The notes beneath the pieces were generated by a model. It ran no database searches. It was not told the DNA's origin and was given only the letters and a program-made list of their open reading frames with translations. A program made the position numbers and the translations under genes. 64,000 nucleotides of DNA from Candidatus Omnitrophota bacterium (GTDB lineage: Bacteria > Omnitrophota > Gorgyraeia > Zapsychrales > JBDRMG01), in the NCBI GenBank assembly GCA_043812495.1, contig JBDRMG010000065.1, positions 2,339-66,338 of the forward strand, given 5' to 3'. Every line of letters starts with the position of its first letter. Positions within the stretch are counted from its first letter, which is position 1. This document shows, piece by piece, positions 6,001-60,000 of this stretch.

Positions 6001-9000
6001 AAAACAGAAGACGTGGAGGAAAAAGCCCTTTATGACTCCTTGGCCAGCGGAGTTATCAATTTCGCCATAGCTACACAAGATGAAAGAGGGGCTAATTTTA
6101 CGAGACGGCTGTTTATGCCGGCTTCGGCTTCCCAGCCTTATGATTTTAGAACAGGCTTTAATTCTAGCTTATGGTCTGCAATTGTCAACAATTACAGGCT
6201 TAATCCCAGAGAAAAGCTTTTAGAGCCTATGCAAAGTTTTACCCTTTGGCTTCTTGACCAACAGCAGACAGATACAGATACAGCTTATCAGGCAAGCTTA
6301 GGAGCGTTTAGCCGGGGAGATGTCTTTTATAATCCTGATAATCAATATGACCCTGAAGATGGGTATATTCCGCCCGCGGTCATAGATTCTCTTCATTATA
6401 CTGTTGTGGCTACCTCACGCGCTATGGGCTACATGGAGAATTATTACGGTATCATTCAATATACGGATACAGAGTTAGCCTTAGAAATCCAAGAGGCTAT
6501 CAAGCTGGCTAATAATTGGCTATTGACACAGTATCAGGACTATGGGATGTATGCCTTCTTTAATGTAGGCTGTGACCTCTACGGAAAGAACCTGCCTTTC
6601 GCTGGATTTCCGGATTTATTGTTAGAGTCTCAGGTCCTGCCTCTCTATGTATGGGATTATATAAGCTGGCTGGGAGTTGATTTGACTTCCTACAAGGGGG
6701 GCGTAGATTGGCTTATCGCCATATACGAGAAAGAGATAGAGTTTAACGCTAATAATATTAAAGGGTTTTCAAGAAATACATTTGGCGACCCTTCCCAGGA
6801 GAGCGTCGCTTCGCACAGCACTCTTATGGCAGCAGGGACGCTGGATTTATTAGGCGATAGCGCAGAGGCCTCATTTTACAGCAATGAAGTTAGCAAGTTA
6901 ATTACTGATGAGGGAGGAATAATATTTAGCGCAAGCAATGCCGGCAACCTGCCGTTTCCTTCCGACTATCATTATTCTTATGTCGTATCCGGCATCTGGT
7001 ATGTATATTCTGCCTTTGGCGTAAACGGCTTTAATCCTTTTGAGGTTGAGGATTCAATAATTACTCCTGAACAGCCGTTTATACTTCATCAAAATTATGC
7101 CAATCCGTTTGGAGGGGAAGGCACTACCATTGAGTATGAATTAAAGGAGCCTGTCAAAACAGTAGATATAGAAATCTTCAATATCCTGGGCCAGAAGGTT
7201 ATAGAATTCAGAGACTTGGAAAACGGGAAAGGAATTCACGAGATTAGATGGGATGGCAAGGACGGCAATGGAGAAGGCTCAGCCAGCGGTATTTACTTTT
7301 ACAGGTTAAAGGTTGACGGCCGCATAATAGAGTCAAAGAAGGCAATGTTGATTGGCGCAGCAGAAGATGATAATGCGCCGGTATACGGACAGGAAGAAAC
7401 TTCTCCAACCCTACCTCTTTTAGCTGGATTACTTCTGACTCCTGCGATTGTTACCAGAAGAAGAAAGACAGGCATTTTAAAGACTGCTGTTATGTTAGCC
7501 GGCCTTGGCTATGCCAAAGGCATTGGGTTTGTAAACGCCTTAGCAGAAATTATCCAGGCCAGATTCTTCCATAAACGAAGAGCCGCGCTGCGCAGGCTGG
7601 CTTCCAAGGCCGTCAGCAAAGGCGCTTTCGTGTATAACAAAATAGCTGAAAGGTTAAAGGAATTGCGGTCTCCTCGCTCTGTCGCTGCTGAAACAGAAAC
7701 AGCTCATTCCTCAGGTGAGGCTTTGACTTCATTGGCAGAAATCGAAAGAGCTATTCTTTCGGCTGAGGAAATCATCATTCAAGCTAAGAAACAAATAATA
7801 AAATGGGCGCTTGGCATGTCGATTCCTTTCCTATTTTTGCTTCAGGTATTACGCGCAGGTCTGACAAACGCGGACGCATATTATTTCTTCCCGACGAGAT
7901 ATATTTTAATTTTGGCTTCCCTGGCGGGACTTATCATGACGGCCGTGGGTGTTGCACGGCAAATCAGGAATTATAGAATTTTGCGTAGTCGCGAAAGGAT
8001 TGTCCGGGAATATAAAGGCATTATTGCGGAAAGCAAAAATTTACTTGCATCTCTTGAAAGAAACGGAGCGGGAGAAGGCGCCCAATCCGATGCCGACCAA
8101 ACTCTCCACGCCAACTTCATCACGCCAGAGATTATTGCGGTCATCGGGCTGATCCTTATGATTGCCGGAATTATGTATGCGCTGCGACTGTCAGGGACCT
8201 GTCCCGCTGGTTTTGCCAAAGGCAAAACTACCAGTGGGACAGGTCCCGAAGCCGCTATGAAGATAGCCTCGGGACCTGTCCCTGCTTTTCTGATTGTGAC
8301 GGGGATAACTTTGGCGGGGACGGGGATTTTAGCGAACAACAATCATCGCGACTTGCCGAGGACTTTCAAGAATTCAGCGGCAGGAAGGATGGGAATTTTA
8401 CCGAAATTTCCAAGGGACAACAGATGGCGGTCGCCGGATACGATACAATCAACCCCGCCTTCCCTGGCGGCATGGAGGAATTTATCATCCGAGGGGTCAG
8501 CTTTGACAATGGGATCCCTCCGGAGCGGTTCGACAAAGAACGCCTGGTCTTTGATTGTTTCCGCGATCTTCAGCACAGTGGCTTTTGGGATAATTTTCTC
8601 GAACTTGGGACGGTTGATCACTTCGACGAACTCATCAAAAATTCTGTCCGATAGGACCAGCGTAAATGTTTCCTGGGAGAGTTTATCGAGAATTTTGCCG
8701 CAATGGGAATACGGCTTCAGCAGGCCGGAAACAACAATGTTTGTGTCAACAACGGCCTTGAGCATATTGGTCTTGACGGTAGGCTTTTATTTCATCGTTA
8801 ATTTCTTTTTGAGAAACAAGATGTCTCCTAAGACGCTTGCGAATATCCTTAAAGATACCCTGCCATCTTTCGCGAAAGGTTTCGTTGTTAAGCTTGCGCG
8901 CCAATTTCAGCTTAAATCTCTTAGGCATGCGGTCAACGATTTTCTCGACCTCTTTTTCCGATATATTCATAGAATATTTAATCACGGTTTCTTCTCCTCC

Positions 9001-12000
9001 GATAAATTAAGTATAGTCGCTTTCTCTTGGCCTGTCAATAATTACTCCCCGGTTTCTAACCGCGATTCCCGCGAACTCCAGGCTAATTTCATCATGCCGG
9101 CCATAATGGCCGTCGCGGCGGTCGTATTGATCATGTACGGTATGATGGTAATAGCTGGCTTATTTAAGAATCAAATGCGCGCCTCTTCCATCCAGTGCCA
9201 GGGCCCGCCTAAAGGCGAGGCACGCCCGCCGGCGAAAACGAGAATTTCCCCCGCCCTAGCCATCCTCGCTCTTTCCGCTGTTCCTGCCTTCATCATTCTT
9301 TTCGCCGTCTTCTCCGAACACAGCCTTGCGTTTATGCCGGTCGCGTTGTCTGATATTGCTTTGCCGGGATTGATGGGAGTAATACGAATTACCTCCGCTA
9401 ATAAAAATGAAATCATTGCCGAAAACAATGGCATCACAGATCCCAATCTCATCTATCCGCAAGACACCATCCAGATGAAAGGATTTATTCTTCCGTTAGA
9501 TCTTTTAAGTCATCCTCTTGTCGTGTTATTGCTCATCGTTGCGGTTGCCGTTCTAAGCTTTAACAGAGTGCGCGAGAGACTCCTGACCATCGGACTTGGC
9601 GCTTTACTCCTATTCTCGGTGTATGCGCTCACGCCGTCCTATGACTCCTCTGATAAGACCTCAAGAATCCCGGCAGGATTGATACAGCAAATTCCGGATC
9701 ATTCAGGCATCCCGCAGGCAGGGCAACGCGCATCCGATTCCCCTGTTGTCAACGGAGCTACCGAAACTCCCCAAGAGGCCATTGTGTCTTATGTCATTAA
9801 ATCCGGCGACACCCTCACGGAAATCATCGAACGGGAACTCGGCGTCTCGGCCTATCGCCCGGTTGTCAATGGCCAGATGCCCTATGAAATCATTGCCGAA
9901 AACAATGGCATCACAGATCCCAATCTCATCTATCCGCAAGACACCATCCAGATGAGATCATTCCTTGGAGACATTTTCACGCCCGGGACCCTAGCGATCA
10001 TCGCCTTTGCTCTTATAGTTGCCGGAATTATATGTGTTTATCAACTCTTAAAAAACCGCGCGGCGGTTAAGGACATGCTTGAAACATCCCTGCAGCGCCA
10101 GGGCCCGCCCGCATCCGCCGTTCCAGCGCGAGCCGGGGTTCTCCCAGCTTCATCCAGAGGCGGACGCCGATGGCGACAGCCGAGACGACCGGTCATTTCG
10201 AGCGGATCTAGATGGGAAGTTTTCGCTTTTGCCGCATTGCTCATCGGGTTTATCTTCTTCTTTAAACCTTCGGCTGCCAAGGCTTCGGATTTTGTCGAAG
10301 ATCAAGATGGCAAGATCACCGCTGTTAACGTGGAATCCGGAGACACCTGGGGTCATATCACGCTTGATTATTACAAAACCCAAGGCCAAGGCGTTGGACA
10401 GCTCTGGGGACCGGACGGAAAGGCGTATACGCTTTGGAGTGAGGTTTATGGGCCAGGTTCAGATTATACAGATATGGATCACATAAGAACCGGCGAAACC
10501 ATTGATCTGACAGGACAGAGTCAAGAGGCAGGGGCAGCTAAATCTCCAACAAAATCCAAGAGTATACAGAAATCCGCAAGAGTCAAGAAGACCGAACCAA
10601 ACAAACAAAATCAGTCAAATCCAGCTAAATCACCTGTCAAATCCGCTCAACCAGAACCAGATTCAACGACAAAACCAGTGAAGAATTCTTCGGCCGGAAT
10701 TTCTCCGGATAGCTTGAAAGACAATTCGAAAATCCAATCTCAAGACAGCGCGAAGGCCGTTGATTCGACTCAAAACAAAAATGCCAATCTATCAAAAGAC
10801 AGCACAAAGGACAAATCATCTCAGAATAAAGGGTCCTCAAGCGGCAAGATCGGCGACGGACAATTTGTCTGGAAATTATTCGGCCCTATCGGAGCTGCTC
10901 TTCTCGCGATGATGGTCGCTGGAATCGCCTTTATTCTTCTTCGAGGCAGAAGCAAGGCAACGCCAAAACAAACAAAGAAAGAATCTGCAGCTACGCCTAA
11001 TGCCGGAGGAGAAAAGGCCGAAGACGTTCCTGGAGATACAGAAGAAGGTACGCCAATAGTTGAAGCTGCAGTTGTCGCTGGATCACAAGAAGCTTCCCAA
11101 ACAGTTGAGCCTGCGGACACGCAAGCCGTTGCTGCTGAAGGAACCGAAGTAAAACCCGAAGAGCCAGGCAATGGGTCTTCTGCTGAAGCTGAAGTTGTCG
11201 CTGGACCACAAGAAGATTCCCAAACAGTTGAGCCTTCGGACAATACTCAAGAAGAAAAACCACAAGCCGTTGTTTCTGAAGGAACCGAAGAAAAATCCGA
11301 AGGATCAGACAACGGGTCTTCTGCTGAAGCTGCAGTTGTTGCTGGATCACAAGAAGCTTCCCAAACAGTTGAGCCTGCGGACACGCAAGCCGTTGTTTCT
11401 GAAGGAACCGAAGTAAACTCCGAAGGATCAGACAACGGGTCTTCTGCTGAAGCTGAAGATTTCGTTGAGCAGGTACTGAATCATGACATTAGCGATCCCC
11501 TTAAGGATCAAAAAGGAAAGCAAGATGATGAACCTGGCGATGCCTCCGACACCCAAGGAGAGGAAACTTCTGGAATCGCTTCAGATGAACAAAACGCCGG
11601 AGATTTTCCGGTATCCGTTGAAGTTCGGGACGAAAAGAATACAGAAGCCGGAGTCCAGGGGCCTGGTCAGGAACCGGTTCGGGAACCGGCGTCTAGTGAT
11701 AATCCTGAAACCGGAGAACAGGACTATATTCCTTTGTGGATGATGGATGAGGATCCTCTCGGCGCAGTAGAGGATGGCTTCGAATTCCCAGAAGAAATAT
11801 CTGATTACACGGTCGAAGCACCGGACGCAACCGGAAAAATAGTCACATTCGCCTCCGGCCAAACATACTACATGGCCTATTACGATATGGAAACCGTCCT
11901 CTCGGACATGGCCACGCGGATTACCATAAAAGAGGACGGCAACGTCGTCGTTCGATTCGATGGAATAGGAAAATCTTATTTCTCGAAAGAACTATTTACC

Positions 12001-15000: not shown

Positions 15001-18000
15001 GGCTCCAAAGAACTTGAAAAAATGCATCAAGCCCGTGAAAAGGTCTTTGACTATGATGAGGAGTCACGAGAGCAAGCCCATAAATCTGTGCGCTCTGGAT
15101 CAGGACAGACCGCCTACGGCTTTGTGACGGGGGTCTCTTTATCACTGGGAGTTTTGGTTTTTGCCATTTTGACACTCATCGTCATTCGCGCCTCCATCAA
15201 GAGGGTAAATGAAGGTAAATTGGGCAAAGGAACAGCGCTTTCTGTTTACCTCCTTCTGGCAGGCCTGACCTTCGTTCTGGGCATCCTAGGGATCCGGCAA
15301 TTCATACCGGATTCGGAAGAAAGAACAGAACGCTATTATAATCTCAAAGTCGGCCAAAAGCCGGAAGAAATTGACCCCACCTTGGTTCATGAGGACCAGG
15401 CGGCTATTCTCACCCAAGGAAGACACGCCGAGACAAGCAATGTTTGGTACAACATGTGCAAGGTCATTGTTGCCATTGACACGACAAACCAAACGGTTGT
15501 GTTTGGTCATCTGACGCCTTGGATTGGCGATAACGGCCTGGAGAAAACGCCGCAGGAATATCAAGCTTTAATCGATAACTTAAAAGATGTTATGGAGTCC
15601 GAAGGTATTATTCAGAAGAATCTTGTCATCTATCTTGTGGCTAATCACAACACGGATATTACTTTGCTTGAGGAAATGCTCAAAGAATCTTTCCCGGGCC
15701 GGATCCGCAAGGTGATTTCGCCTTTTGACAATCAAAGAGAAATTTATGTTGCCGTCTCCAATGAAGAAGAGGGAATAGAAGTAACATCCGTTGGGCAAGA
15801 AGACAATGTTCCCAATAAAGTATTAGTCATAGATCCTCACACCGGACGGATTATTGAAGAAAGGGACGGGGCTTGGTATATGCTTTATCTTTATATAAGC
15901 GCCGGATTGGCAGCCTATTACTTATTTGGCCATGGCGGTCTTTCTGCTATTGAAAGCCGGTCAAGAAGACGGAAAAGACAATCAACAGCTGATAGGGACC
16001 GATTATATCACGGCCTTGTTTTCCCCTGTCTCACAGGCACCATCATCGAGATGGCCGCGGTGGTCCTTCTAGCTGGGCTTGGGGTTTGGGCGGCCCAAAG
16101 AAGAAGGTCTAGTAGGCTGATTGATTCGGAGAATGGAAACAAGGAAACAGAACTTGACGGAGAAGAGTTCGTAGCCGCTCAGTTCTATCGACTCTACGGC
16201 GCTGACAAGATTAAAGATTTTAGCCCGGCATTCACCATTTCTGAGGCGAAACGCTTACTGGAAGCCGGCTTAGATGACATGGTGCAAAATCTTTACAAGC
16301 AGTATGGGGAAATTATACCTCCGGAAATTAATGCTCCTGAATTACGAGAATTGGTCCGCGGAATCCCTGAAGATCAGCTAACCTTTAAGAACGTGGCCCA
16401 AGCCTTTTCTGGTTATTTAAGAAAGAAATATGATCTTTATAGCAGAGGCAAAATGGACCGCGCTGCAATTATGGATCTGGGTGAGCAGGAGAAAAATATT
16501 CTTCGGTATGTCTTTAGATTATTCAGCGACAATATCCAATACGACCATCAGGGCGCAGACGGCCAATGGAAATCAATACTTTCCCATGCCATCGAAGGCA
16601 ATCCGTACATTGAAGGTAGGCCGCGTACCTATATCTGCGAAACAGCATGCGCTTTGGCCATAATGGCCCTGGAAGAAATAGGCTTAGGAGCAACGCCGGA
16701 TAAAAAACCCTCTAAAATCGGCATCCACAAAAACTTTAAAGGAATAGACATGAGCCAGGGCGGCCATGTGGCTGTTTTATGGAAAACCGTTAATGACGCC
16801 GGTATTTTTGATCTGACGCAGGGACTGGTAGATCATGATGGGCGCTCTTGCCTGGCGAACATAGACATCAATCATGAAGTTCTCAAAATCAAGCAAGCTA
16901 ACGGTCAAGAGCGATTCGTTCGCTATGGCAGCAAAAAAGATTTAGAGCCCATTCAAGGTGAGACCTTTAAAGATCTTCTCGAAGACGAAAGAGTTTGGGC
17001 CAAATACCATGATTTGACTAATAGGAACAATGCAATTGATTTTCACGCGTCTGACAAAGGCAGCATTTTGCTGCAGTCACAGAAAATTTTTAAGGAAGCA
17101 GATGCTTTAAGTAATCTTCCGGTCGTTCGTCGAGATCCGATATTAAGTGAAAATCTGAAGAATCTCAAAGCCACTGCTCAGGCTAACATACAAAGTCTCA
17201 ATAGATCTGATCGAATGAGGAATGCGTACGAAGCCCTGAAGCGACACACAGACACTTTAAACCGAATTCATCGAGTATCCAATGGGAACCATGAGCTTGC
17301 TGAAAAATCCTACACAAAACTAGCGCAAGATATAAAAGACACAATCGCTTCGCTTTCAGCCGACTCAAGGTTTATAGGAGCCACCGCAAATGATGTCAAT
17401 TTCAGATTAATAGCAGTCGACGCATACGGAAATAAGCGCGAGCGAAAAGTCGGTGGTCAGGGAATCATTGACGTCCTTGAAGATCTTAAGAAAGATGCCC
17501 AAGAACATGCTTTGATAAGCTGTTATTTCTCTAGATTTAAAAAAGCAAACGCGAGATTCCAACAAGGAGAAGACGTATTTCCAGATCCAAAGGCCGGGAG
17601 TAATTTCCAAGCGGCTTTAAGCCAATATATTTCTCTTGAGAGAGAAATTAAGAAAACTCTGCGGACCCCGGGCATTTCCAATCCAAGCATTATTCAAAAC
17701 CTAGAGAGCCTACAAGATACCATCGCTGCAAATAAAGATGCCGCAGCCGATAACATAAAAACGCTTGGCCAAACTCCACAAATGGAATCATCCCTCGGTC
17801 TCATCCTCCCCGGCGTGACAGGCACCATTATCGATGTACTCGTAGTCGCCCTGCTCCTGGCCGGGCTTGGGGTTTTGGCGGTTCAAAGAAAATGGTTTTC
17901 GAAACTAGGGGATAGGATTAGCAATGAGCGTTTAGCGTTTAGCGTAGAGCGTATAGTTAGAAATACTAAACGCTATACGCTATCTCCTATCTCCTATCTC

Positions 18001-21000
18001 CTATCCGCTATCCGCTATCCGCTATCCGCTGTCTGCTATCTCCTATCCGCTCCACGCTATGCGCTCTACGCTACTCTTCTCATAGCGGCCGTTGTTTTAG
18101 GCGGCTCGACCGCTTTTGGCTTGAGTTTTGCGATCATGCCGTTTTTGGCATCCATACGCTCGGAGGATTCTGATCCGGACCGGGAATCCCAGACGACGCA
18201 CGTCTCGATGATCCTTTCTCAGCAAGATGAGGACTTCGTTCTTGCTATCGGAGAACAATCTTTCAGAATACAAAAGAATTTAATAAAACAGGAATTTGCG
18301 GCTATTACTCAGAACGGAAAACAGATACAAGACGCGAACGTCAGACTCACCATGCACAATCTCCTTGCGTTTAATTATTTCTTCTGGCTGTATCAGCAAA
18401 AACAGAAAATAGCCAAAGGATCCGCTGATTTTATGGGCGATCTTTATGCGCGCCTAAGCATTACGTATGACCAGAAACGCGTTATTGTCCGTTACGCTTA
18501 TGGGGACGCGCCGCTTGAAGACCAGAGCGAGCATGCCTGGAGTTATGGGTTTGAGATTAACCGTGCCACCGGAGGCTATAAAGCCGAGATTCAGGACAAA
18601 GGCCTCGAGGCATATGAGAAAAACATGCTTTTTAACCGGTATGTCGAATATTTCTTAAGCATTTTAGCGACAGTCCACCGCGTTTTGGATCCAGCGACAG
18701 AGAAAGAAATGATGAGGCTTCTAGAAAAGGCATATTCTTCGAATGATTTCACAGGGTTTTATCGCCGCATTCCCGGCGAACCGGAAATCGAAGAAAAGAA
18801 AGGCGATAGCGGTCGACCAAACCTTACTTTCGGCGGTCTCATTCTCCCTGGTCTCACAGGAACCATCATCGAGGTACTCGTAGTCGCCCTGCTTCTGGCC
18901 GGGCTGGGGGTGTTGGCCCAGAAGAGAGGATGGTCCCGACGCTTTCTGAATAAAACAATTAAGGTAGTCGGGATCCCGACTTCAACAATTTCATTTAAGA
19001 GAACGTCGGGATTCCGCAGGCTGACTAATTCAGAGAACAGAAACCAAAGCACAGAAACCAAAGAAAAGAAAACCTCACCCTACTCCTCCGCCAAAAAGAA
19101 ATTCAGCAAAGCCTTCCCACTCATTGTTATTCTCATAGCCGGTGCTTTGGTGGTAATGTTTATGGATATGCGCGCTGATGTTTATGCATCTGATGATGTT
19201 AAATCTTCAGCCTTAACAATGATCCATATTCTCATAGCCACCACAGCCTTTATACTCTTGCCTTCCTTGTTGCGCTTGCTTGGATATGACAAATGGGCTG
19301 CGCGCTTAGAAAAAGTCTCTTTTGTCGGAATATTTGTGGGCCTTGTTGGACTTATGTCTGCTTCAATTTTTGTCCCCGCCCAGGCCCAGGCGCAGACAAA
19401 TCCGTTCAACACATTCTCTCCCGATGAGCCGGATGATGACGGAAATAATGGTCTTTATGGGGATGACGAGACCAGCAGTCTTCCAGCGACATTTATAACA
19501 CAAGATTATTTATTAGATTTGATTCAAAATGCTGAATGGGGAGTTAAAATATTTACAGAAGATCAATGGAATAATAATGAAGATTTAAAGGGTTGTGAAT
19601 ATCATTATGGAGGCGCTGTTGGTGTTCCTGCGACTCAAACAATGTATTATGCCGGTACCATCGCATCCACAGGGCATTTGTCTCATGAGACAACGCATGT
19701 TCTTCAATCATCCTTAACTCAGGAAGAGCTTCTGGAAGCCTATGACGGATTAGCGGGAGTTATCAGAAACCAAGAGGCTAAAGACATTCTAAGTAAATTA
19801 ATGGATGCTTATTTAACGACCTACAATAAACTTCTAATAGAGTGGGTAAACAGCCAAAACCTTCTTACCGATGAAGAAAAGAAGACGATATTGAAATCCA
19901 ATGGAGCTGATGAGACGTTTGCTCTTCTCTTTGGCATGTTTGTGGGAGCTTGCCAGCCAAGCGAATCGAATCTGGCGACCTGCCATCTTGATGAATACGG
20001 AGTGGCCAGACTGACTGAAATTTTATTGGAAAGCGAAGAAGAGAACGAAGCAAGAGAATATCTTGCTCGTTACTATAGAGATTTAGGTTACGATGAGAAT
20101 TTGGTTAATAACTTATTGCAGACAAACGGTACCCAATTAGGGGCGAATAGCTCAATAGAGCCAGAAGCTTCTTTAACTATCTGTGACTGGTTTATGCCAG
20201 GAGTGGTAGTTGGTGCGGAGGCAACTTCTGCCCCTGCCCAGGCGCAGGATATTATGCCAGTCTCTGGAGAAAAAACAGATACTGATTCAGATTCGACTAA
20301 GAACGATAATCGAAATTTTAAAACAAATCTACTTAATACTTTAAGAAGAATTGGCAGTTCGGCTTATGAAAAACCAAAACCTTATCAGGTGGCGCTAAAT
20401 AATCACCACGGGAGCGCAGATCAAAGCTTAAGAACAGAAACGAGTTCATTGAATCCAAGCGATCGCTATTGTGTAATAAAACAAAACAGAGCTCTTTCTA
20501 TTAATAACCAAATGCAAAAACCTCCTCTTCTTATGCCAGATAGTATTGTAACATTCCAGAATCTTGAAGAAGCGAAAGACTATGATATTCCAGAAGGCTG
20601 GCCCTATGCTGTCTTGCAGTTCAAAGAATGGCCTATTTATTACATTAAATTTATTGATAATTTCATACAAGGATTGGCTTTTGACCGGATGGTTTATTAT
20701 GTCGAAGTAGAGCCAGGCGTTCTTTTATTTGATCGTGAACTAAGAGCGAAAGAACAAGATATGAAAACATTTGGCGAGGGAGGACGTGATTTTCACTTAA
20801 ACGATGTAGTCGCATTCTATAATGAAACCAAGAACAAAAATTGCCCATTGAATATCATGGAGTTCAGATTGCTCGCGGAGTTTATAAATGCAGGTTTGAT
20901 CCTTCGAACAGAAAATGGATACCAACCAGCTATGGAAGCGGCTATTATGAGCACTGATTTGTTAGGAGAAGAGCAAGCGCTTAAGCAGGAATTTGATCAT

Positions 21001-24000
21001 ATGGTTTATTTTATCGATGAACAATATAGGCAAGCGGCTGATAGTCTTTATCTGGCGTTTTCTGAAGAAGACCGCCAATTTGCCGTAGACGTTGTGACCG
21101 CACTCTTTATTTATAATGATCAAAATCCAAATCTTATGGCCAGAGAAGTGGCGGGTTTCTTTAGAGAACCATGGGATCTCATCTATAACAATTTAATCCA
21201 CGTTGACACATCTCTTGCCGCGGATTCCTCAAGAATATATCAATTGGGCGAACAGGTAATTTCTCTTGAAGACCAGAGCGAAATATATAGAGATCTTGGC
21301 AGACAACAAAGATTGCTTGGATATAAGAACCTTGTGGCGCAGCTGCCGGAAAAGACAAAGCGTAATTTCCTAAAGGGCGTTAACGAGATGCAGCTCATGA
21401 CGAGAAAGCCATCCCCTTGCTTAGGCCTCATCCTCCCTGGCGTGACGGGGACCTTGATTGAGGTGCTTGCGTTATTGGCTATCGCTGGACTTGGGATTAT
21501 ATGGATTTATCGAAACTGGTTTGCTCTGAAAAATGTTTATAGCCGAATTTCTAATAGAATTCTTAGTGTGGTCCTAGGGCCGTTGGCGCAAGGAAAGGAT
21601 CATCCGTGGTCCCGACGCTCCGACCATAGGTCGGAGGTCGGGACTCCGACTTCCACAATTTCATATGGGGAAACGTCGGAGCTGTCACAAAGAAATCATT
21701 CGTCGACTGGAGACCAGATAACAGTTTACAGAAACCAGAATAGGCCGTTGGTGCCAGTCGTTCCTTCCGTGGCAGGAATTTCGACTGTTACGCCAACGGC
21801 CTCTTCTTTATTTGTTATGCGAAATAGAATAAACGGAATTTACTTAACAGCTTCGAGGTGGGTCAGCCGCTTGCCGAAATCTTCCTTGATGGTTCTAATA
21901 TCCTCTTCCATTTTAGCAAGCTTGCCGTTTATTTTTGTCAGCTCCTCTTTCATGAATGAGGAACGAAGGCTTATCGTTGTGATATCTTCCGCGTTTCTAG
22001 CCACCATTCCCATTGTGGCGTCCAATTTATCCCGTAAAATGCTCTGGCCTTCTGCAATCGCTCTCATGTCCGTATGGATCTTCTCAAGCACGACTGCAAA
22101 TTCCCTGTCTTTGGAGAATTCCTTCAATGGCTTTGTTGTCTTATTGCCTTTGATCTTCATGATGGCGCTTATTTTAATCCAGCACAAAAATATTGTCAAG
22201 AGTATTCTATCGGTAATGAGTCGTGATTCACAAAAAGATCTTTATCGACGATGGACAAAGGGCGTCTCACGTCTCGCGTCTAACGTCTCACATCCTACGT
22301 CTCGCGTCCTTCGTAAAATTTTCAGCGGCTCAGCCCAAACGACCCTCTCATCTCCTTCTTCGCTGAAAGGCTTGCGCGTTCAGCTTCGAAGGACAAGCGT
22401 GGCTTCAAAAACTAATCAACCATTAGAAAAGATTTTCAGCAGCTCAACTGATGCAGCCCCATCTACCGTGCGCCGGCCTTCCTTTGATATTAAGCCTGAG
22501 GAAGCCGGCATCCCGACTTCCACGAATCAAAATCTCGGCAGAAGGCAGAATCGTAATAACCAATCTTCATTTTCCGTGGCTGGTGAGGAAAATTGGGGTC
22601 CTTCTGCCAAGATTTTATCAGGAAAAATCGGGACTGGTGAGAAGGTTGTTCAAGTTGCGCAAAAGGACAGGGTCCGAGGTGCCCCCCTCCGCACTTCGGG
22701 CTCTGTCCGTAGTCCTTTGGCTGCTTCGGTCGTCATGAGCGTGGCAACACCCGCGACGGGCCTCGAAACAAACTCATGGTGGTTTAGTCCGATCTTCGAC
22801 GGGATCCCATTGACGCCTTATATCATTATCGTCAGTATTCTTCTTTTATTGTTTCTTACCTCTCCAGCTTGGCTATTATGGCCGATAAAATCGGCACGAT
22901 CTAAAATTCCGGATCATGTTGAATGGAAACGATTAAGCCGCAAAGATAAACGAATCGGCGTTGAAGACCTTGAGCGCTTCTTGAATCATCCTGACGGTGT
23001 AGTAATAGATATTAGGACCGACATGTCAGGGAAACAAATGGCGGAAATGCTCAATGAAAGATTTTCCGCGGTCCACACTCCCTACCGAAGAGGTTTTGCC
23101 GCACTTTACGACCGTATCATTCGGACGATTTTGAAACAGGTTTTGCCACAGCAGCCTCTCTTACCAACATCCTCCCCCCAAGATGAAATAACCGCGATTT
23201 ACAATATAGTTTCCAAAATTGCCTCCCCTCTTTCTGAAGAGGAAAAGAGAGAAATTGCCTTTAGGGTTTTGAAAGAAGCTAAAGCGGATATCAAAAGACA
23301 GGTTGAATCACCCGCAAAGTCAGACATCTTTTCTAAACTCAAGGCCATGATGTTTATCATGGCCGGTATCGTAGCTTTCGGGTCATCCAGCCTCTTCGGG
23401 GCCCAACAAGGACCCTTCCCCTTGGAAGGTTCCGCGATCCCCCATAGTTTCGCCTCTGGCGAAACTGTCATGGGGAATCCCGACTTCCTTAATATTGATT
23501 TAGGAAACGTCGGGACAACCGCGGCAGACACAGTTGCGCAAGCTGCAGCAGGTCTATCGGACATCACAACAATCGGATTGATTATTTTGGCCGTTCTTGC
23601 TGTTGGTGTTATGGGAGTAGTGATTTCCGTGAGAATGCCAATCAAATCCCATGTTGCCGAATCAAAGGCATGGAAGTTTATTCGCACCCACTACAAAAGC
23701 ATTCTTGGGATGGCGGCGGTTGTGACCATCGGGATTTTGGCCTGGCAATTCAAGCCATGGGTAGAGCTATTGGCTGCTTTTGGCGCTTCCAATTGGATGA
23801 TCAAAGCCTTCAACTATGTGGTGGCGGCTAATGTGGCCATGTTCTTAGTTCTTACTTTTGAGAAATGGAAATCCGAATACCAAAGAGTTAATCCTTTCAC
23901 CTTGACAAGAGAAGAGATCATAACCGAGCTTATGGAAAGATATAAGGCAAAAGACACGTCACGGCCGTGTCCCGCGGGCACGGAAGGAATGATCGCGGAT

Positions 24001-51000: not shown

Positions 51001-54000
51001 CTCAAAATAGTTCATTCCGAGATTGAGCAGGCTCACAAAGAACAAAGAGCGACTGTTGTTCATGGAAAGATTGAGGGTCTCGCTAAGGCAAGCGCCCAAC
51101 AGATCCAATCGTTCGCCGCCGCCCATGACCTTCTGAAAGGATTCACCGTCGACTTGGGAAGATTTCAAACGGGTGAAGTTGATATTTACGAATCGTTAAG
51201 AGCGTCCAATATCGTCTTGATTCTACCCAGAGCCAACGCGCCCAATCCGGTGGCCAAGATAACCCCTGCCGTTGTGATCGACGGAACCATTTACTTCTTT
51301 AGTGACCTTCAAAATATTTCCCCTGTTATTCTTGCCCAAAAGCTTCTTCATGAAGCCGTTGAATTAACCGCACAGACTAAAGCGACAGACTTTAAAAATA
51401 TCGAACAAAAAGTCCATGATTTTGCCCGAGAAACCGAAAAAGAATTCCTAAAATCAGACGCCGGACGTTTAGCCCTCCATGAGCAAACCATGGATGTCTT
51501 AAAACCTGTTCTTGAGAGAGCAAAAGAACAACTCGACCGGAGGGTTGACATCGTTATCGGCATCAATGCGCATAACGAAGTCGATAACATCACCCATGTC
51601 GTTGATTCTTTAAAACAAGGCCTAAGCAGAGACTATCCCGGCAAGACGGCCGTCCTCATTATTCTGGGAAGCCCTCTGGCGGATGAGCTCATTAGCGTTG
51701 TGAAGGCGATTCCCGAGGAAGACAACATTAAAATCATCACAATGAAAAGCCCGCACCGAGGAAAGGTTTGGGGAATCCTGAGTCTGTTTGATTTGGCCCA
51801 CTTGTTGGATGCCGAAACCGCCATCATGATTGATGCCGATATCACAAATCGCAACTTAAGCGACTGGGTGAAGGCCTATACCCAAAAAGTGGCGACTGAA
51901 GGATTTGATTATGTGGATTCCAATTATGCCAGAAACGAAATCACGGATGACGGCGGAATAACAAAATATATCATCGGGCCTGTCCTGACAAGTTTACTGT
52001 CCGTTCCGAGCGAACAACCGGTCGGCGGTGAATTCGCCTTCTCAAAGACATATATCCGCCATGCCAGACGAGACCAAAGAATCTTAGACGCTGTATTGTC
52101 AAGAAAGACATACGGCTTAACCGGAAGAGCGGCTGGATCTTTGGGTGAATATCTCATTCTCACCGGAATGCTTTCCTTAGCGGCTGAACACAATCTGAAA
52201 ATTTCCGCAAGCCTCCCCTTGGGCACCAAAGAGCACAATCCGATTATCCCCGAAGAAAGATTCACGGTTGCCTTAAGAGGATTTCTTGAACAGGTCAATA
52301 ACGACGCGGCCATTTGGCTTGGAAGAAAAGCCGATGTCGATCTCAGCGCCCTTACCTTGGCGTATTGTGCCATGGATGACGCATTGAAAACAAAACAAAG
52401 CCAATGGATGGAAAATTTCAGAAGTCACTTTACAGATTTTAAAGACATCTATTGTGCCGTTCTGACTCCCGAAACCAATGACTTATTAGAGAAGGCAGCA
52501 GTCGAAGATCAAGGTGATCTGGAAATAACTCCCGCAATCTGGGCGCAAACGATCTACGGCATCATTTTGGCCTATCATTTGCGTAGCGAAATCAACCGCG
52601 ACCGATTACTGGACGCGACCAATATCGTCTTTCAGCTGTTTTCCGCGCTGTCTGTCGCAAAGATCGCGGCCGGGGGTCTGACGGCCGAAGATTATGTGCG
52701 TGATGTTTACAAAGCATTTTCAGCCCAAAGAGACACTTTCATCAAGGCATGGCAGCAAGCCAAATGGCATCAGTTTCTTAATTCCATCAAAGAGCATCTT
52801 CCGTTAGATTTCAGACAGATCTCTTTATCCCATATCAAAGAAATCGTTATTCCTTCATGGCCGGCGTTTCGGGAATATTCATCTCAGGAGAACGATTTGC
52901 TCAGTGAAACAAAAATTTTATTGACCATACCCTCCTTCGTCGATCAGCTTTTCAGCCATAGCCTGCGATACGGTTTGCATGTCACTTACGGCCTTGCTTA
53001 TTTAAGACAGCTATCTCCGGCCAAACGGGACGATGTGTTGGGACAAATAAGAACTTTAGGCTATGCGGATTTGGCAGACTGGTTAGCCCTAAATCACAAT
53101 GCTAGAATCAACGAGGCCATGGAAGCCATCAAGGCAAGCTATCCGGATCAATCCTCCGAAGGACGCAAAGTTTTAAAAGATCTCATTGCCTTAAGAGATA
53201 TTGTCATGAGCCGTAGCCGGTCTTTAAAAGTGGCTACCGAAACATTAATCGACCATCAGGGCGACGAAGGATATCAGGGAATTTTAGACCTTTTGTTCAA
53301 CAACAAAGGGATTCTGGATGTCCTCTATGGCATTGCGCCGGTAGCCATTATCGAAACCATGGTCTCTGGAAAACGGATTGAACTTCTCAGAGAAGTCCTC
53401 TGGGCCTTGCACCAGGTGGAAGGCGTTGTTGTCAACGTGCTTGCTTTGGGCAATAACACGTACTACGTGTACGATGAAAATGCCCTGAAACGCATGGCGC
53501 CCCATAACGTGAGACGATGCACCGTGACCAAGGAAGGGCTGGAATCAAGGATCCAACTAGATCTGGCAAGAGAAAACGGAACGTATTATGACCTGCCGCG
53601 GGAAACCAGAAGAGCGTCTGTTCTTGAGGCGACTGTTGTTGATAAACTAAGTCAAGCCATTCTTCTTGTTGGGCCGGGTCAGAGATTCTCGCTTTGGGAT
53701 GAAGCATCCCGTATTCACAGGGCAGGGGCGCTTGCGTCAAGAGCATTCAGCTTAGAAGCATCAAAGGTGGATGTCAACACAACGGCCACCATTAACAGGG
53801 CCAAGGCCTTAGACGAACAAGTGAGCGCGGAGCTCGAGGCCGAGACAATAGTTAATAACCGCATTCCTCAGGTTATTATCGATGATTCCCTACCGGAAAT
53901 CTTCGCCCAGAACGCCCAGACGTTGGCCCGCTTGTCAGAAAAATACGGCGTTAAGATTATTCATTTGTCGGCTTTAAACAGGGAAATGGACCAAAGGCAA

Positions 54001-57000: not shown

Positions 57001-60000
57001 ACAAAAAATATTCCGTTCCAACCGTGCGTCGACTTTTCTATCAAGAAAATTTCACGGAAGTCGACATCCCGACTTCAAAAGATCAAAATCTCGCTGGAAA
57101 GAATTCTACCTAAAACTACTTCTCGCTATCCGTGGCTGGCGGAGAAGAATCAGTACTTCCCAGCGAGATTTTATCTAGAAAGGTCGGGGCTGGTGATCGG
57201 ATATTTTGCAGCGGCCCTGCTTATTGTCCTCATTCCTTTATTTTGCATTAAAGCGCTGGGAATAATCTTAACGGCCATGCCGTTGCTGTTGGTCGGCGGG
57301 GTTGAAGGCGAAGATTATCAGCCAATAGGCCAGGTAACCGCCCGCGCCAAAGCGCTTTCATTGATCTTCGGCGAACCTATTGAATTACTGCCGAATTTAC
57401 CGGAATACAAAGATCTTCCTGTTATCCCGCACACGGTATTCCCTGCAAACCAGGACATCACAACGGATATCAAGAAAGTCATTTTAGATCATCCTGACCT
57501 GTTTGCCGTGATCGCGGGTGTACGCAAAGCCGCCTTCATTGAAGGCTTAACTCTTACGCCTGAGCAGGAAAAAGACTTACGTCATATCTTAAGGATGCTG
57601 AACATCATGGTGCTGGCTTCCACTGATTTCATTATTCTTCCTCAAGGCCTCTACATCTATGAAGGCTACCAATTAACAGCCGAACTCTATAGGAATAATC
57701 CTTCTGACTTACGTCTTGGCTTTACCCAGGCCGGACTAAAACTACTTATCCTGCGAGATTTTGCCAGAGGTCCCGGCCATATCTTCTATGACTTAGCTGT
57801 CCAAGCATTAAATGAGCAAGATTTATCGAACATTTCATTTGTCAGAAATGTGATGGAAGTTAAGCAGGAAGCTTCTTCTAGAGAAGGCACGCTTAAAGAG
57901 TGTTATGTTCCCACCTTTGACCGGCCGGACACCTTGCACAGAGTATTAATATCCTTGAAGACACACAATAAGCTTTATGGCCATAATGTCGCTGCTGTTA
58001 TTCATGATGACTCTCGGGATAAGTCCAATGCCGAGGGCCGCAATTTTTATCAGGAGAACCAGGCCATCATCCGTGAAATGCGTACCGCCGGGTTAGATAT
58101 TATCTACATCGGCGTTGAGGATAAAACGACTAAAATAAAGAACATGGTAGACTATCTCTTCGATAAATTTAATCTGTTATTGACCCAAGGACAATTAGAT
58201 TCCTGTATCCAAGCCCAAGTCATCCGAGATGGCTCGATCGACCGGGCCCTGATAGAAAACGCAGTTGCGGCTGCCTTTGCCACCAATATCGCGGGGGTGC
58301 GCACATTCAATAATGCCCGAAGCCAGGGCGATACATTCGCCTCGATAGACGATGACGCCTTATTCCAGATCAGAGCCCATACAAGAGCAACCTGGGAGAG
58401 AATCACAGCCGGACGGGAAGAAAAAGTTTACGCGCTCGAAATATTACTTTATGGTGAATTGGCTGACCTTTGTGAAATAACCATAGAAAATCAAGAAGAT
58501 TTTCTTGGAGCATTACGTTTAATTCCCGGCCTTCCTTCGGAGAAACAGCTTGCGGCCAACGAAATCTTTGAGCGTTATTATGCCTATCCTGACGGCCTTA
58601 TTCTTGCTGCCGCCGGCCAGATTGCCGATAATCAAGATGGTAAATATGAAAACCGCCTCAGGTTTAATGATGAACTTCAGCAGGGTTTAGATCAAAAGTT
58701 AGTCGTAGTCGAAGATACCGGGGACACGTTACCGGACATTGAAGATACGGACTTTATCCTTGTGCCGGTCGACTTCTTCGGTGTTGCCAACCATCTTATG
58801 GAAACAGGCGTAACGGCTGAATCAGGCTCGCTGATGTCCAGGGATCTGCGCGGCATTGCCGGGATCCCGGCTGATCCGGCTAACATTCCTTATGGTAAAC
58901 CTATACGCGGTGTCTCGGGCCACTTTATCGGAGCTCGTGACGGCAGCGGCAGGACACACTTTATCGAAGCCATCCAGCGCTGGAAGAGAGTCAGCAGAGT
59001 CGATTCTCATGACTTTAGGAGAATGGTGCGTTTAGCCTATGCTGGGAAGATAGGGTTATTAACCAGATTCTCTATGGACCTAGGCAATGAATTCTGCTGC
59101 AATGTTCACGCCATAGACCAGCGTGGCATGGATGAAAACGGTATGTCTTTCGCTATTCCCACCGCTTCAGGCTGGCAGAGAAGAGAAGAGCCATACCTGG
59201 TACAGTTGATGAGATTCTTATTTGACGCCTGTAGCGTCTGGGCCACAGGCGGAGCCCATGAACGCGTTCCCGGCTTGCGCCGTCCAGCCATTGGTAAGCA
59301 GGCTCTCTGGGAATTTGTTACGTTAATCTCCTATGTAGACCTGCATCCGATCCTAGAAGCATTACATGAAAGTATTCCTCAGGGCAACTCAGCTGAAAGA
59401 ATCCAGGCCTTAGGCCAGGCCTATCTTGAACTGGCAAGAACCTATCAGATCCCCGCTGATCAGATTGACCGCTTAAGAAAAGAGCAGAGACTGATCTTAA
59501 AATGGGCCAATGAACTCTTTGCGCTTCTTCAGAACCCGAATATTAATATGACCGGCGATAACGAGAGAGAACTTCTTGAAATGGCTCAGGAGTTCTGTGA
59601 ACAATTTGGGCTGTCTCGCTATCGCATGACTGATGAAGGTGTCATTGTCAAAGAAATTCCTGTTTTAGAATCCGACCCTGTCTGGCAGAACGGCCGCTAT
59701 AAAGAAAAGATTACATGGAATGCCTCTGAAGAATTAGATCCTTCTATCGTGACAATGATGACGAATGATCACATAGAATATTATGCCGCTATGGAAGACG
59801 GAATAGTATTTGAAGGCTTGTTGAAGCGTACCCGCAGCATCATTATCGAGCAGATGATCTACGACGGCCTGCAGTACCTCTTATGGCCGGATATCTTAGA
59901 GGCCATGAAGAATACCGAAGGCATTGCGATGCCGGGAGAGGTGGTTGCTTCTTTAGATAACAGACTTTCGATGGAAAGACAAGAGACGTTAGAGTATTTA

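Follow-up and report, generated by a model that had tools for sequence, protein, structure and literature searches.

Contig JBDRMG010000065.1 of a Candidatus Omnitrophota bacterium (NCBI GenBank assembly GCA_043812495.1) contains a stretch of 64,000 nucleotides (nt), positions 2,339 to 66,338 of the forward strand and referred to here as the window, that is crossed from end to end by a single giant open reading frame (ORF) in frame +1. The other five frames contain 846–1529 stops each over the same 64,000 nt. A small gene with its own promoter lies on the opposite strand, inside a spacer of the giant ORF. The comparisons described below indicate that this minus-strand ORF of 106 codons is a real gene under protein-level selection, and the best-supported reading of the surrounding DNA is that the giant frame has been maintained free of stops through the gene, its promoter and its flanks. 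The original prediction, made from the letters of the window, had placed a 106-amino-acid (aa) antisense ORF, a canonical promoter and a stop-free frame +1 in a linker of 1.3 kb. Its coordinates are exact and all three elements are present; the linker corresponds to a spacer of ~1.3 kb that extends from ~21525, the end of a module of the giant ORF, to ~22812, the start of the next transmembrane (TM) segment. The features at the locus are as follows, in window positions.

1 to 64000, plus strand: giant frame +1 ORF, over 21,333 codons without a stop, cut at both window ends.
21525 to 22812, plus strand: stop-free spacer ('linker') of frame +1, like intergenic DNA in content and scoring low on frame +1 codon usage.
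21840 to 22160, minus strand: small-gene coding sequence, nested, 106 aa and a TAA stop (ATG at 22160..22158, TAA at 21842..21840).
22161 to 22170, minus strand: interval of 10 nt between the -10 box and the ATG, AAGCGCCATC, with no GGAGG or Shine-Dalgarno sequence.
22171 to 22199, minus strand: sigma-70-type promoter TTGACA-N17-TAAAAT, 11 of 12 consensus positions matched, geometry common to the homologous loci.
21737 to 21807, both strands: long GC-rich hairpin, terminator-like, 33 nt after the small-gene stop (z -4.4, also z -6.5).

The small gene is monocistronic. Its product is rich in K, E, I, T and L, has no signal peptide, lipobox or TM segment, and is expected to release, among other tryptic peptides, EFAVVLEK and DKLDATMGMVAR. 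An AlphaFold2 model predicts a disordered Lys-rich N-terminus followed by a single alpha-helix over residues 17–105 (mean pLDDT 84.7). The heptad-rich protein of the original prediction is thereby upheld and refined to one continuous predicted helix, and the protein presumably forms a coiled coil by self-association. With a codon-usage model trained on frame +1, 21721–22200 scores better in the small-gene frame than in frame +1, and the sole other place in the window where another frame outscores +1 with this model is the region of a VapBC unit described below. The seven longest other antisense ORFs of the window, all of at least 150 aa, were rejected as spurious, Pfam and codon usage being negative for each. 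The promoter-plus-ATG motif has an estimated ~1 chance occurrence per window and was found once. As ORF length and local motif alone are not significant, significance was drawn from homology and from comparative conservation.

Homology searching shows that the small protein is a member of an unnamed family of ~100-aa single-helix coiled-coil proteins. An exhaustive phmmer search recovered 76 cluster representatives at E<1e-3, nearly all of ~100 aa, and a profile search recovered 143 proteins of the family, most of which lie on contigs shorter than 3 kb. The closest homologue is 63–67% identical (63% in a word-indexed search). In the alignment, the N-terminal core REFAVILEKI..EGQ..L.DKLD.T.GMVAKN.EDIT. 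is followed by heptad-like 'xIKxD' units, variable in number between members, and the C-terminus reads FGKRLTHLEA-K. Tandem paralogues of the small gene are present in two homologous loci (L002 and L012); the window yielded no second member of the family. Searches of Pfam, NCBIfam, PADLOC, PHROGs and PDB sequences with the small protein and its family returned only generic coiled-coil matches below cut-offs. For the window protein the best Pfam scores were CENP-R (16.7 bits against a cut-off of 27) and DUF1664 (16.1 against 34.6), and family members match many coiled-coil models non-specifically. The protein shares a long helix, heptad-type periodicity and weak profile similarity with Lpp (Braun lipoprotein), the gp26 needle of phage P22, the reovirus sigma-1 stalk, DUF1664 and XhlA; unlike in those short coiled coils, its terminal motifs (REFAVILEKI... 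and FGKRLTHLEA-K) are family-specific, and all such matches are below cut-offs. Lpp, DUF1664, XhlA and CCDC90-like proteins were rejected as the identity of the small protein, since no score rose above a curated family cut-off. A component of a type II toxin-antitoxin (TA) module was also rejected, the gene being monocistronic and matching no Pfam, NCBIfam or PADLOC family above threshold. One Patescibacteria protein with 25% identity (L016) was excluded as a different coiled coil that lacks the family terminal motifs.

Homologous loci were retrieved, with their surrounding DNA, from genome bins, from JGI metagenomes and from other assemblies. Of the 17 that were informative, 15 have the small gene antisense to a frame with zero stops over the whole available contig (1.1–20.3 kb). 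The nested set comprises the window, L001–L005, L007–L010, L012–L014, L022 and L024, and its members span 29–67% identity; L023 was left ambiguous because of scaffold gaps. The loci were picked by means of the small protein and not of the giant ORF, so the nesting is not a selection artefact. Organism labels accompany only the four genome-bin loci, three of them Omnitrophota and one Planctomycetia. The overlap phase is the same in all 11 loci for which it was computed, with third codon positions facing each other. Free-standing copies exist as well. In L006 (also recovered as L017–L020) the genes alr, tsaB and tsaE precede the small gene in the same orientation; the small gene has a separate intrinsic terminator, and every antisense frame contains stops downstream. 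In L021 (1–6183) the small gene and a 592-aa gene are divergently oriented, HicBA and a DUF433 gene being close by on the small-gene strand, and the other strand carries ordinary genes of 85–592 aa set apart by stops. The protein family and its free-standing copies bear out the proposal of a real nested antisense gene, and the 106-aa frame is clearly conserved in related sequences.

Conservation is stronger in the frame of the small gene than in the giant frame opposite. The BLOSUM62 score per site is 3.04 for the small frame and 2.02 for the giant frame, the small frame being higher in 55 of 55 pairs, and mean identity is 61% against 54%. The overlapping frame had been described at first as non-selected, and codon usage and BLOSUM conservation both favour the small-gene frame. 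At the DNA level, conservation between loci begins at the -35 box and stops at the stop codon; searches for conserved elements past the stop codon, across loci, and in the rest of the linker were negative. When the giant frame of the window was compared by blastp with the giant frames of ten loci, the only shared stretches were the small gene's antisense shadow and a match of 190 aa that is unrelated. The flanking modules are thus unrelated between loci, which makes the small gene a conserved element in otherwise unrelated surroundings, and its position within the giant ORFs is not conserved. The giant-frame shadow of the small gene in the window is rich in S, L, I and V (GRAVY +0.91), has three TM-like windows of 19 residues and includes the peptide LIVVISSAFLATIPIVASNLSR. 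A protein database search with a capped number of candidates and the alignment of this shadow peptide as query gave no matches, low-complexity words or the cap being the probable cause.

The promoter is conserved in the same manner. In 17 of 18 loci, nested or free-standing, (C)TTGACA is followed by N17 of unrelated sequence, TAnnAT, 7 or 10 nt and ATG. Start and stop codons are likewise kept in 17 of 18 homologous loci, and every family member examined starts with ATG. A functional promoter is expected to show just this combination of conserved boxes at constant distance and freely varying spacer sequence, and the canonical promoter of the original prediction, TTGACA-N17-TAAAAT, is confirmed. 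The short distance between the -10 box and the ATG, together with the lack of a Shine-Dalgarno sequence, suggests a small-gene mRNA that would be leaderless or have a leader of at most 3–4 nt. The near-leaderless geometry proposed earlier recurs with the same spacing of 7 or 10 nt in those 17 loci, the transcript 5' end being a predicted one. Leaderless genes are common in Actinobacteria, Deinococcus-Thermus and archaea, and lambda cI is the classic example. The small gene resembles leaderless bacterial genes in having its -10 hexamer 7–10 nt before the ATG and no Shine-Dalgarno sequence, whereas its spacing is equally compatible with a leader of 2–4 nt. The window has three sites of the form TTGACA-N17-TAnnnT, where 0.38 would be expected; all are on the minus strand, and two of them lie at the small gene and the VapBC unit. 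The third exact match, TTGACA-N17-TAAGCT at 53749–53777 on the minus strand, has no start codon within 12 nt and no codon-usage support.

The state of the giant frame across the island was assessed separately from that of the gene. From 21440 to 23040, a trough of ~1.6 kb in the frame +1 coding score, there are no stops in frame +1 and 14–31 in the other frames. The non-genic flanks alone give 0 stops in +1 against 5–8 in one and 0 against 8–21 in the other. Inside the gene, a stop in the giant frame is possible only at codon junctions of the form NN[T/C]|TAN or NNT|CAN. The small-protein family is poor in Tyr, His and Gln, and the codon that precedes its stop encodes Lys or Arg and has A or G as third base (11 copies examined); a protein of this composition with a Lys/Arg end makes the overlap phase intrinsically permissive. 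Codon choice was examined by a synonymous shuffle in which the protein was fixed and codons were redrawn from each locus's own usage, for ten nested loci. The probability of having no antisense stop was 0.16–0.42 per gene (1.0 for two genes) and ~1.6e-5 jointly. A conserved Gly-Gln pair is encoded by GGC|CAA/G in 8 of the 8 nested copies that have it; the free-standing L006 uses GGT|CAA, a junction that introduces an antisense stop. The shuffle and the codon pair indicate that the synonymous codon choice of the small gene avoids antisense stops. To our knowledge, translation is the only process that reads stop codons frame-specifically, and frame-specific avoidance of stops would therefore mean that ribosomes cross the island in frame +1.

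The spacer around the small gene contains further elements; the island has a module end on one side and the next hydrophobic or TM segment on the other.

21424 to 21523, plus strand: module end 'GLILPGVTGTLIE' with a hydrophobic segment and a basic/aromatic tail, sorting-signal-like, the fourth paralogous copy.
21600 to 21810, plus strand: structured palindromic repeat copy (GTCGGGAnTCCGACTTCCAC and the long hairpin), downstream of the small gene.
22263 to 22308, both strands: tandem repeat of 7 nt, CGTCTCA x 6.6, 65–110 nt upstream of the -35 box.
22467 to 22627, plus strand: second structured-repeat copy, ~270 nt upstream of the promoter.

The two structured-repeat copies bracket the small-gene transcription unit as direct repeats. 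When the island was examined as a possible mobile cassette, these bracketing direct repeats were present and no recombinase gene was found among the antisense ORFs of the window. The structured element consists of the palindrome GTCGGGAnTCCGAC, then TTCCAC, then the long hairpin. Further copies are located at 18935–19080, 23447–23592 and 57036–57181, all copies being on the plus strand; most are in low-coding spacers, and the one at 23447–23592 is outside the low-score segments. The copies at 22511 and 57067 show compensatory changes in the long stem. Neither Rfam, scanned with the gathering and with permissive thresholds, nor tRNA scanning gave any hit in the linker or in the window, the structured element included. 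The hairpin downstream of the small gene precedes, on the plus strand, the T-run TCTTCTTTATTTGTT; this stretch, 21737–21820, resembles an intrinsic terminator in the sense direction of the giant ORF. No convincing plus-strand promoter was found for the module after the island, and no canonical plus-strand promoter was found in the window. A second 7-nt tandem repeat, GCTATCT x10 at 17979–18051, is also within the open frame. Gain or loss of one 7-nt unit would shift the giant frame into stop-rich frames, so the 7-nt repeats are potential phase-variation switches that could truncate the giant ORF.

Other antisense units are present in the window and in the giant ORFs of the homologous loci.

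8343 to 9038, minus strand: VapBC island of the window, with VapC at 8343–8765, VapB at 8746–8985 (overlapping), the promoter TTGACA-N17-TATACT at 9038–9010 and a GGAGGAG Shine-Dalgarno sequence.
L002, 5003 to 5215, antisense: two-TM miniprotein gene.
L003, 4925 to 5140, antisense: two-TM miniprotein gene.
L004, 3597 to 3803, 4164 to 4379, 4887 to 5093, 5346 to 5552 and 5907 to 6104, antisense: five tandem copies of the two-TM miniprotein gene.
L010, 8663 to 8869, antisense: two-TM miniprotein gene.

VapC matches PIN_3 (E 1.2e-21), and frame +1 is open throughout the VapBC island. The parallel drawn in the original prediction between the small gene and a VapBC unit is sound, as VapBC has its own promoter and Shine-Dalgarno sequence. 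The accompanying statement that the linkers retain opposite-strand units is accurate for the presence of such units; the ancestry that 'retain' implies lacks support, the flanking modules being unrelated. Plus-strand frame 3 also outscores frame +1 at 8221–8640, which is probably an artefact of lying antisense to VapC. HicBA adjoins the small gene in L001, L013 and L021. The small gene is like the VapBC and HicBA type II TA modules in occupying the same kind of antisense island with its own promoter, and unlike them in being monocistronic and having no toxin or antitoxin domain. The two-TM genes form a second nested antisense, putatively leaderless family in giant ORFs, with products of 65–71 aa that contain two hydrophobic segments and promoters of the form TTGACA-N17-TAnnnT-N7/10-ATG/GTG; no copy was found in the window. 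Public gene calls leave the 20-kb stop-free frame of L012 and L013 wholly or largely uncalled, and in L013 a called product of 24,373 aa starts right at a 100-N gap. The uncalled frames and the short contigs of the family are consistent with overlap rules that suppress one of the two genes.

The giant ORF encodes in frame +1 a mosaic of TPR, PMT_2, FlgD_ig/CHU_C, LysM, FHA, M23 and GT5+GT1 domains and a fucose pyrophosphorylase-like region, with hydrophobic segments between them. The starch-synthase GT5+GT1 pair has an E of 4e-65. Paralogous module tails of the type 'ILPG(V/L)TGTIIE + TM + basic' are located at 16011–16108, 17796–17896, 18834–18934 and 21424–21523, with ~7111–7440 as a further site of C-terminus-like features; after such a tail the next module opens with a signal-peptide-like segment. 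A CHU_C/FlgD_ig domain of the type IX secretion system (T9SS) type, followed by TM+RRRK, lies in the middle of the ORF. Sorting-like tails and T9SS-type C-terminal domains normally mark protein C-termini. The NCBIfam CTERM-sorting models gave only sub-threshold scores on the module ends. According to two preprints on Omnitrophota giants of the 'archaeovorin' type (bioRxiv 10.1101/2023.11.21.568195; bioRxiv 10.64898/2026.06.07.730766), the window shares with those giants an ORF of more than 64 kb, many hydrophobic segments and a mixture of glycosyltransferase, peptidase, TPR and sugar-metabolism domains. The divergent SecA DEAD helicase domain (SecA_DEAD) of archaeovorin-type giants was not found within 1–60000 at E<=1e-4/1e-5, the giant ORF running past the window; methyltransferase and NUDIX domains were not seen within 1–60000 either.

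Antisense embedded genes have been reported in other bacteria. Examples are pop/ompA, ano/ECs2385, laoB and asa in Escherichia coli O157:H7 and long overlapping genes in Pseudomonas aeruginosa (PMC7103648, PMC5960689, PMC5810103, PMC6294744, PMC9927249, PMC8850804; review PMC7457138). The small gene is like these in being a coding ORF wholly inside a longer ORF of the opposite strand, in having its own promoter and terminator-like elements, and in being systematically missed by gene callers that forbid overlaps. In E. coli and P. aeruginosa the embedded gene is young, taxon-restricted and overprinted on an old conserved mother gene, whereas here the embedded gene is conserved and has a family. 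The host frame here is, unlike in those cases, locally unconstrained except for being stop-free, and there are 15 loci with one fixed phase and whole transcription units engulfed, TA operons included. In the two preprints (bioRxiv 10.1101/2023.11.21.568195 and 10.64898/2026.06.07.730766), a term search found no mention of antisense or nested genes, promoters, stop codons or stop-free spacers within ORFs, and a full-text literature search for Omnitrophota and antisense returned nothing relevant. The nesting is inverted with respect to known antisense overlaps in that the embedded partner is the conserved one, and no prior description was found.

We consider it probable, from the sequence comparisons, that the small gene functions autonomously and resides in a permissive spacer of a giant ORF whose frame is kept open. 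RNA polymerase with a sigma-70-type factor would start at the TTGACA/TAAAAT promoter, and the transcript would begin a few nt from the ATG, be leaderless and end at the hairpin 33 nt past the stop. The giant frame at the island would be selected only for having no stop codon and not for its amino-acid sequence. Its openness would be achieved by the facing third positions, the composition of the small protein, synonymous choice and the purging of stops from the non-coding flanks. Ribosomes on the giant ORF would, in the most economical reading, traverse the island and thereby produce a hydrophobic junk linker rich in S, L and I. The spacers would act as permissive sites for short, compositionally compatible, self-promoted genes, with the small-gene family, the two-TM miniproteins and the VapBC/HicBA modules as residents. 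The comparisons show that the gene is real, that its promoter geometry is conserved, that the nesting recurs and that stops are avoided; we infer the transcription start, the read-through translation and the relation of permissive resident. That the gene is cargo, filtered by size and composition, is favoured by its free-standing copies, by its unrelated flanks and by the TA modules next to it.

Several points weigh against this view. The gene body is only weakly informative on stop avoidance, because the composition of the protein makes the phase nearly stop-free, and two non-nested copies are likewise open across the gene. Pairwise dN/dS is uninformative for both frames, synonymous sites being saturated, and cannot separate the frames because their third codon positions coincide. 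L002 is the exception that lacks the promoter. The terminator-like hairpin with its T-run inside the giant gene fits poorly with one uninterrupted giant transcript. Expression of both the small gene and the giant strand is a prediction from sequence. Finally, nesting in 15 of 17 loci exceeds what a neutral permissive-site model obviously predicts and leaves room for a dedicated functional link.

Such a link is possible, though in our judgement doubtful. The small gene could be a dedicated partner of the giant gene, either as an assembly, export or immunity factor or through a convergent complementary RNA that regulates or processes the giant mRNA at module boundaries. Its nesting in 15 of 17 loci at 29–67% identity, despite the unrelated surrounding modules, is what a partner would show, but copies also stand free beside the housekeeping genes alr, tsaB and tsaE or beside a 592-aa gene. 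In favour of a partner, the near-consensus promoter faces the transcription of the giant gene and the island is bounded precisely by a module end and by the next TM start; against it, the position of the small gene within the giant ORFs is not conserved. The tandem paralogues in L002 and L012 speak for a partner, whereas the islands are common to VapBC and HicBA, which are classic selfish cargo, and no domain links the small protein to secretion or regulation.

A second alternative concerns the host. The giant ORF may not be one protein and may instead be a string of ordinary genes and intergenic DNA purged of in-frame stops, with the modules made from internal signals. The frame would be open for a reason other than the making of one polypeptide, such as ribosomes staying on the RNA to prevent Rho-dependent or intrinsic termination, or later cutting at the sorting-signal-like ends. 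The small gene would then be a normal convergent or divergent neighbour in a former intergenic region. We regard this as rather unlikely, with real observations on its side. The architecture resembles convergent genes with a bidirectional hairpin, followed by a divergent promoter region, but no canonical plus-strand promoter was found in the window. Modules open with TM or signal-like segments and close with 'ILPG(V/L)TGT + TM + basic' tails, and a T9SS-type C-terminal domain lies mid-ORF, although the CTERM-sorting models stayed below threshold. A starch synthase, a cytoplasmic enzyme, is embedded in the frame with an E of 4e-65, and the REP-like structured repeats and the 7-nt tandem repeats of the spacers are typical of non-coding DNA. 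L021 has a similar gene set in normal-sized genes with stops between them, and it may be an 'unfused' counterpart of the giant-ORF arrangement. Yet frame-specific stop avoidance of any kind still implies translation of that frame, and expression of a giant protein in V. archaeovorus is reported from published proteomics, as discussed in bioRxiv 10.1101/2023.11.21.568195.

That the antisense ORF and its family are mere by-products of a conserved hydrophobic, TM-like segment of the giant protein is extremely improbable: the giant-frame peptide is also conserved (54% mean identity) with three TM-like windows, and the shared third codon positions leave dN/dS non-discriminating, but the free-standing copies, which have antisense-frame stops around them and once within the gene, in effect refute it, and the ATG, the stop and the fixed-spacing promoter are conserved on the small-gene strand, conservation runs from the -35 box to the stop codon, the small frame is better conserved in 55 of 55 pairs and favoured by codon usage, and length varies in heptad-type units.

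Beside the probable reading of an autonomous gene in a permissive spacer, the likeness of the spacer anatomy to ordinary intergenic DNA gives room for a broader idea, which we put forward tentatively. Omnitrophota-type giant ORFs could be once-separate genes and intergenic DNA welded into one frame by the purging of in-frame stops, with specialised resident families. The welded material may have been genes of secreted proteins with their own N-terminal anchors and C-terminal sorting-like tails, and the welded intergenic parts may include promoters, bidirectional terminators, REP-like hairpins, heptamer repeats and complete antisense units. The residents, namely the coiled-coil protein, the two-TM miniproteins and the TA modules, may have adapted in composition and codon choice to read-through of the opposite strand.

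The findings indicate that real genes are hidden inside the largest bacterial ORFs, since callers that forbid overlaps omit the small gene wherever the giant ORF is called; such gene calling would also explain why most family members sit on short contigs. The usual overprinting picture of overlapping genes is inverted, the nested gene being the conserved partner. The stop-free island provides sequence-level evidence that the giant frame is selected to stay open even without a useful product, and thereby indirect evidence that such ORFs are translated end to end. Some of the 'numerous transmembrane helices' that have been predicted for giant proteins may be no more than charged coiled-coil genes read on their antisense strand. 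The resemblance of the spacers to intergenic DNA also prompts the question how giant genes originated and whether each of them acts as a single protein. If the giant ORFs were indeed welded from separate genes, ribosomes would read without a break across intergenic DNA and across the antisense strand of genuine genes.

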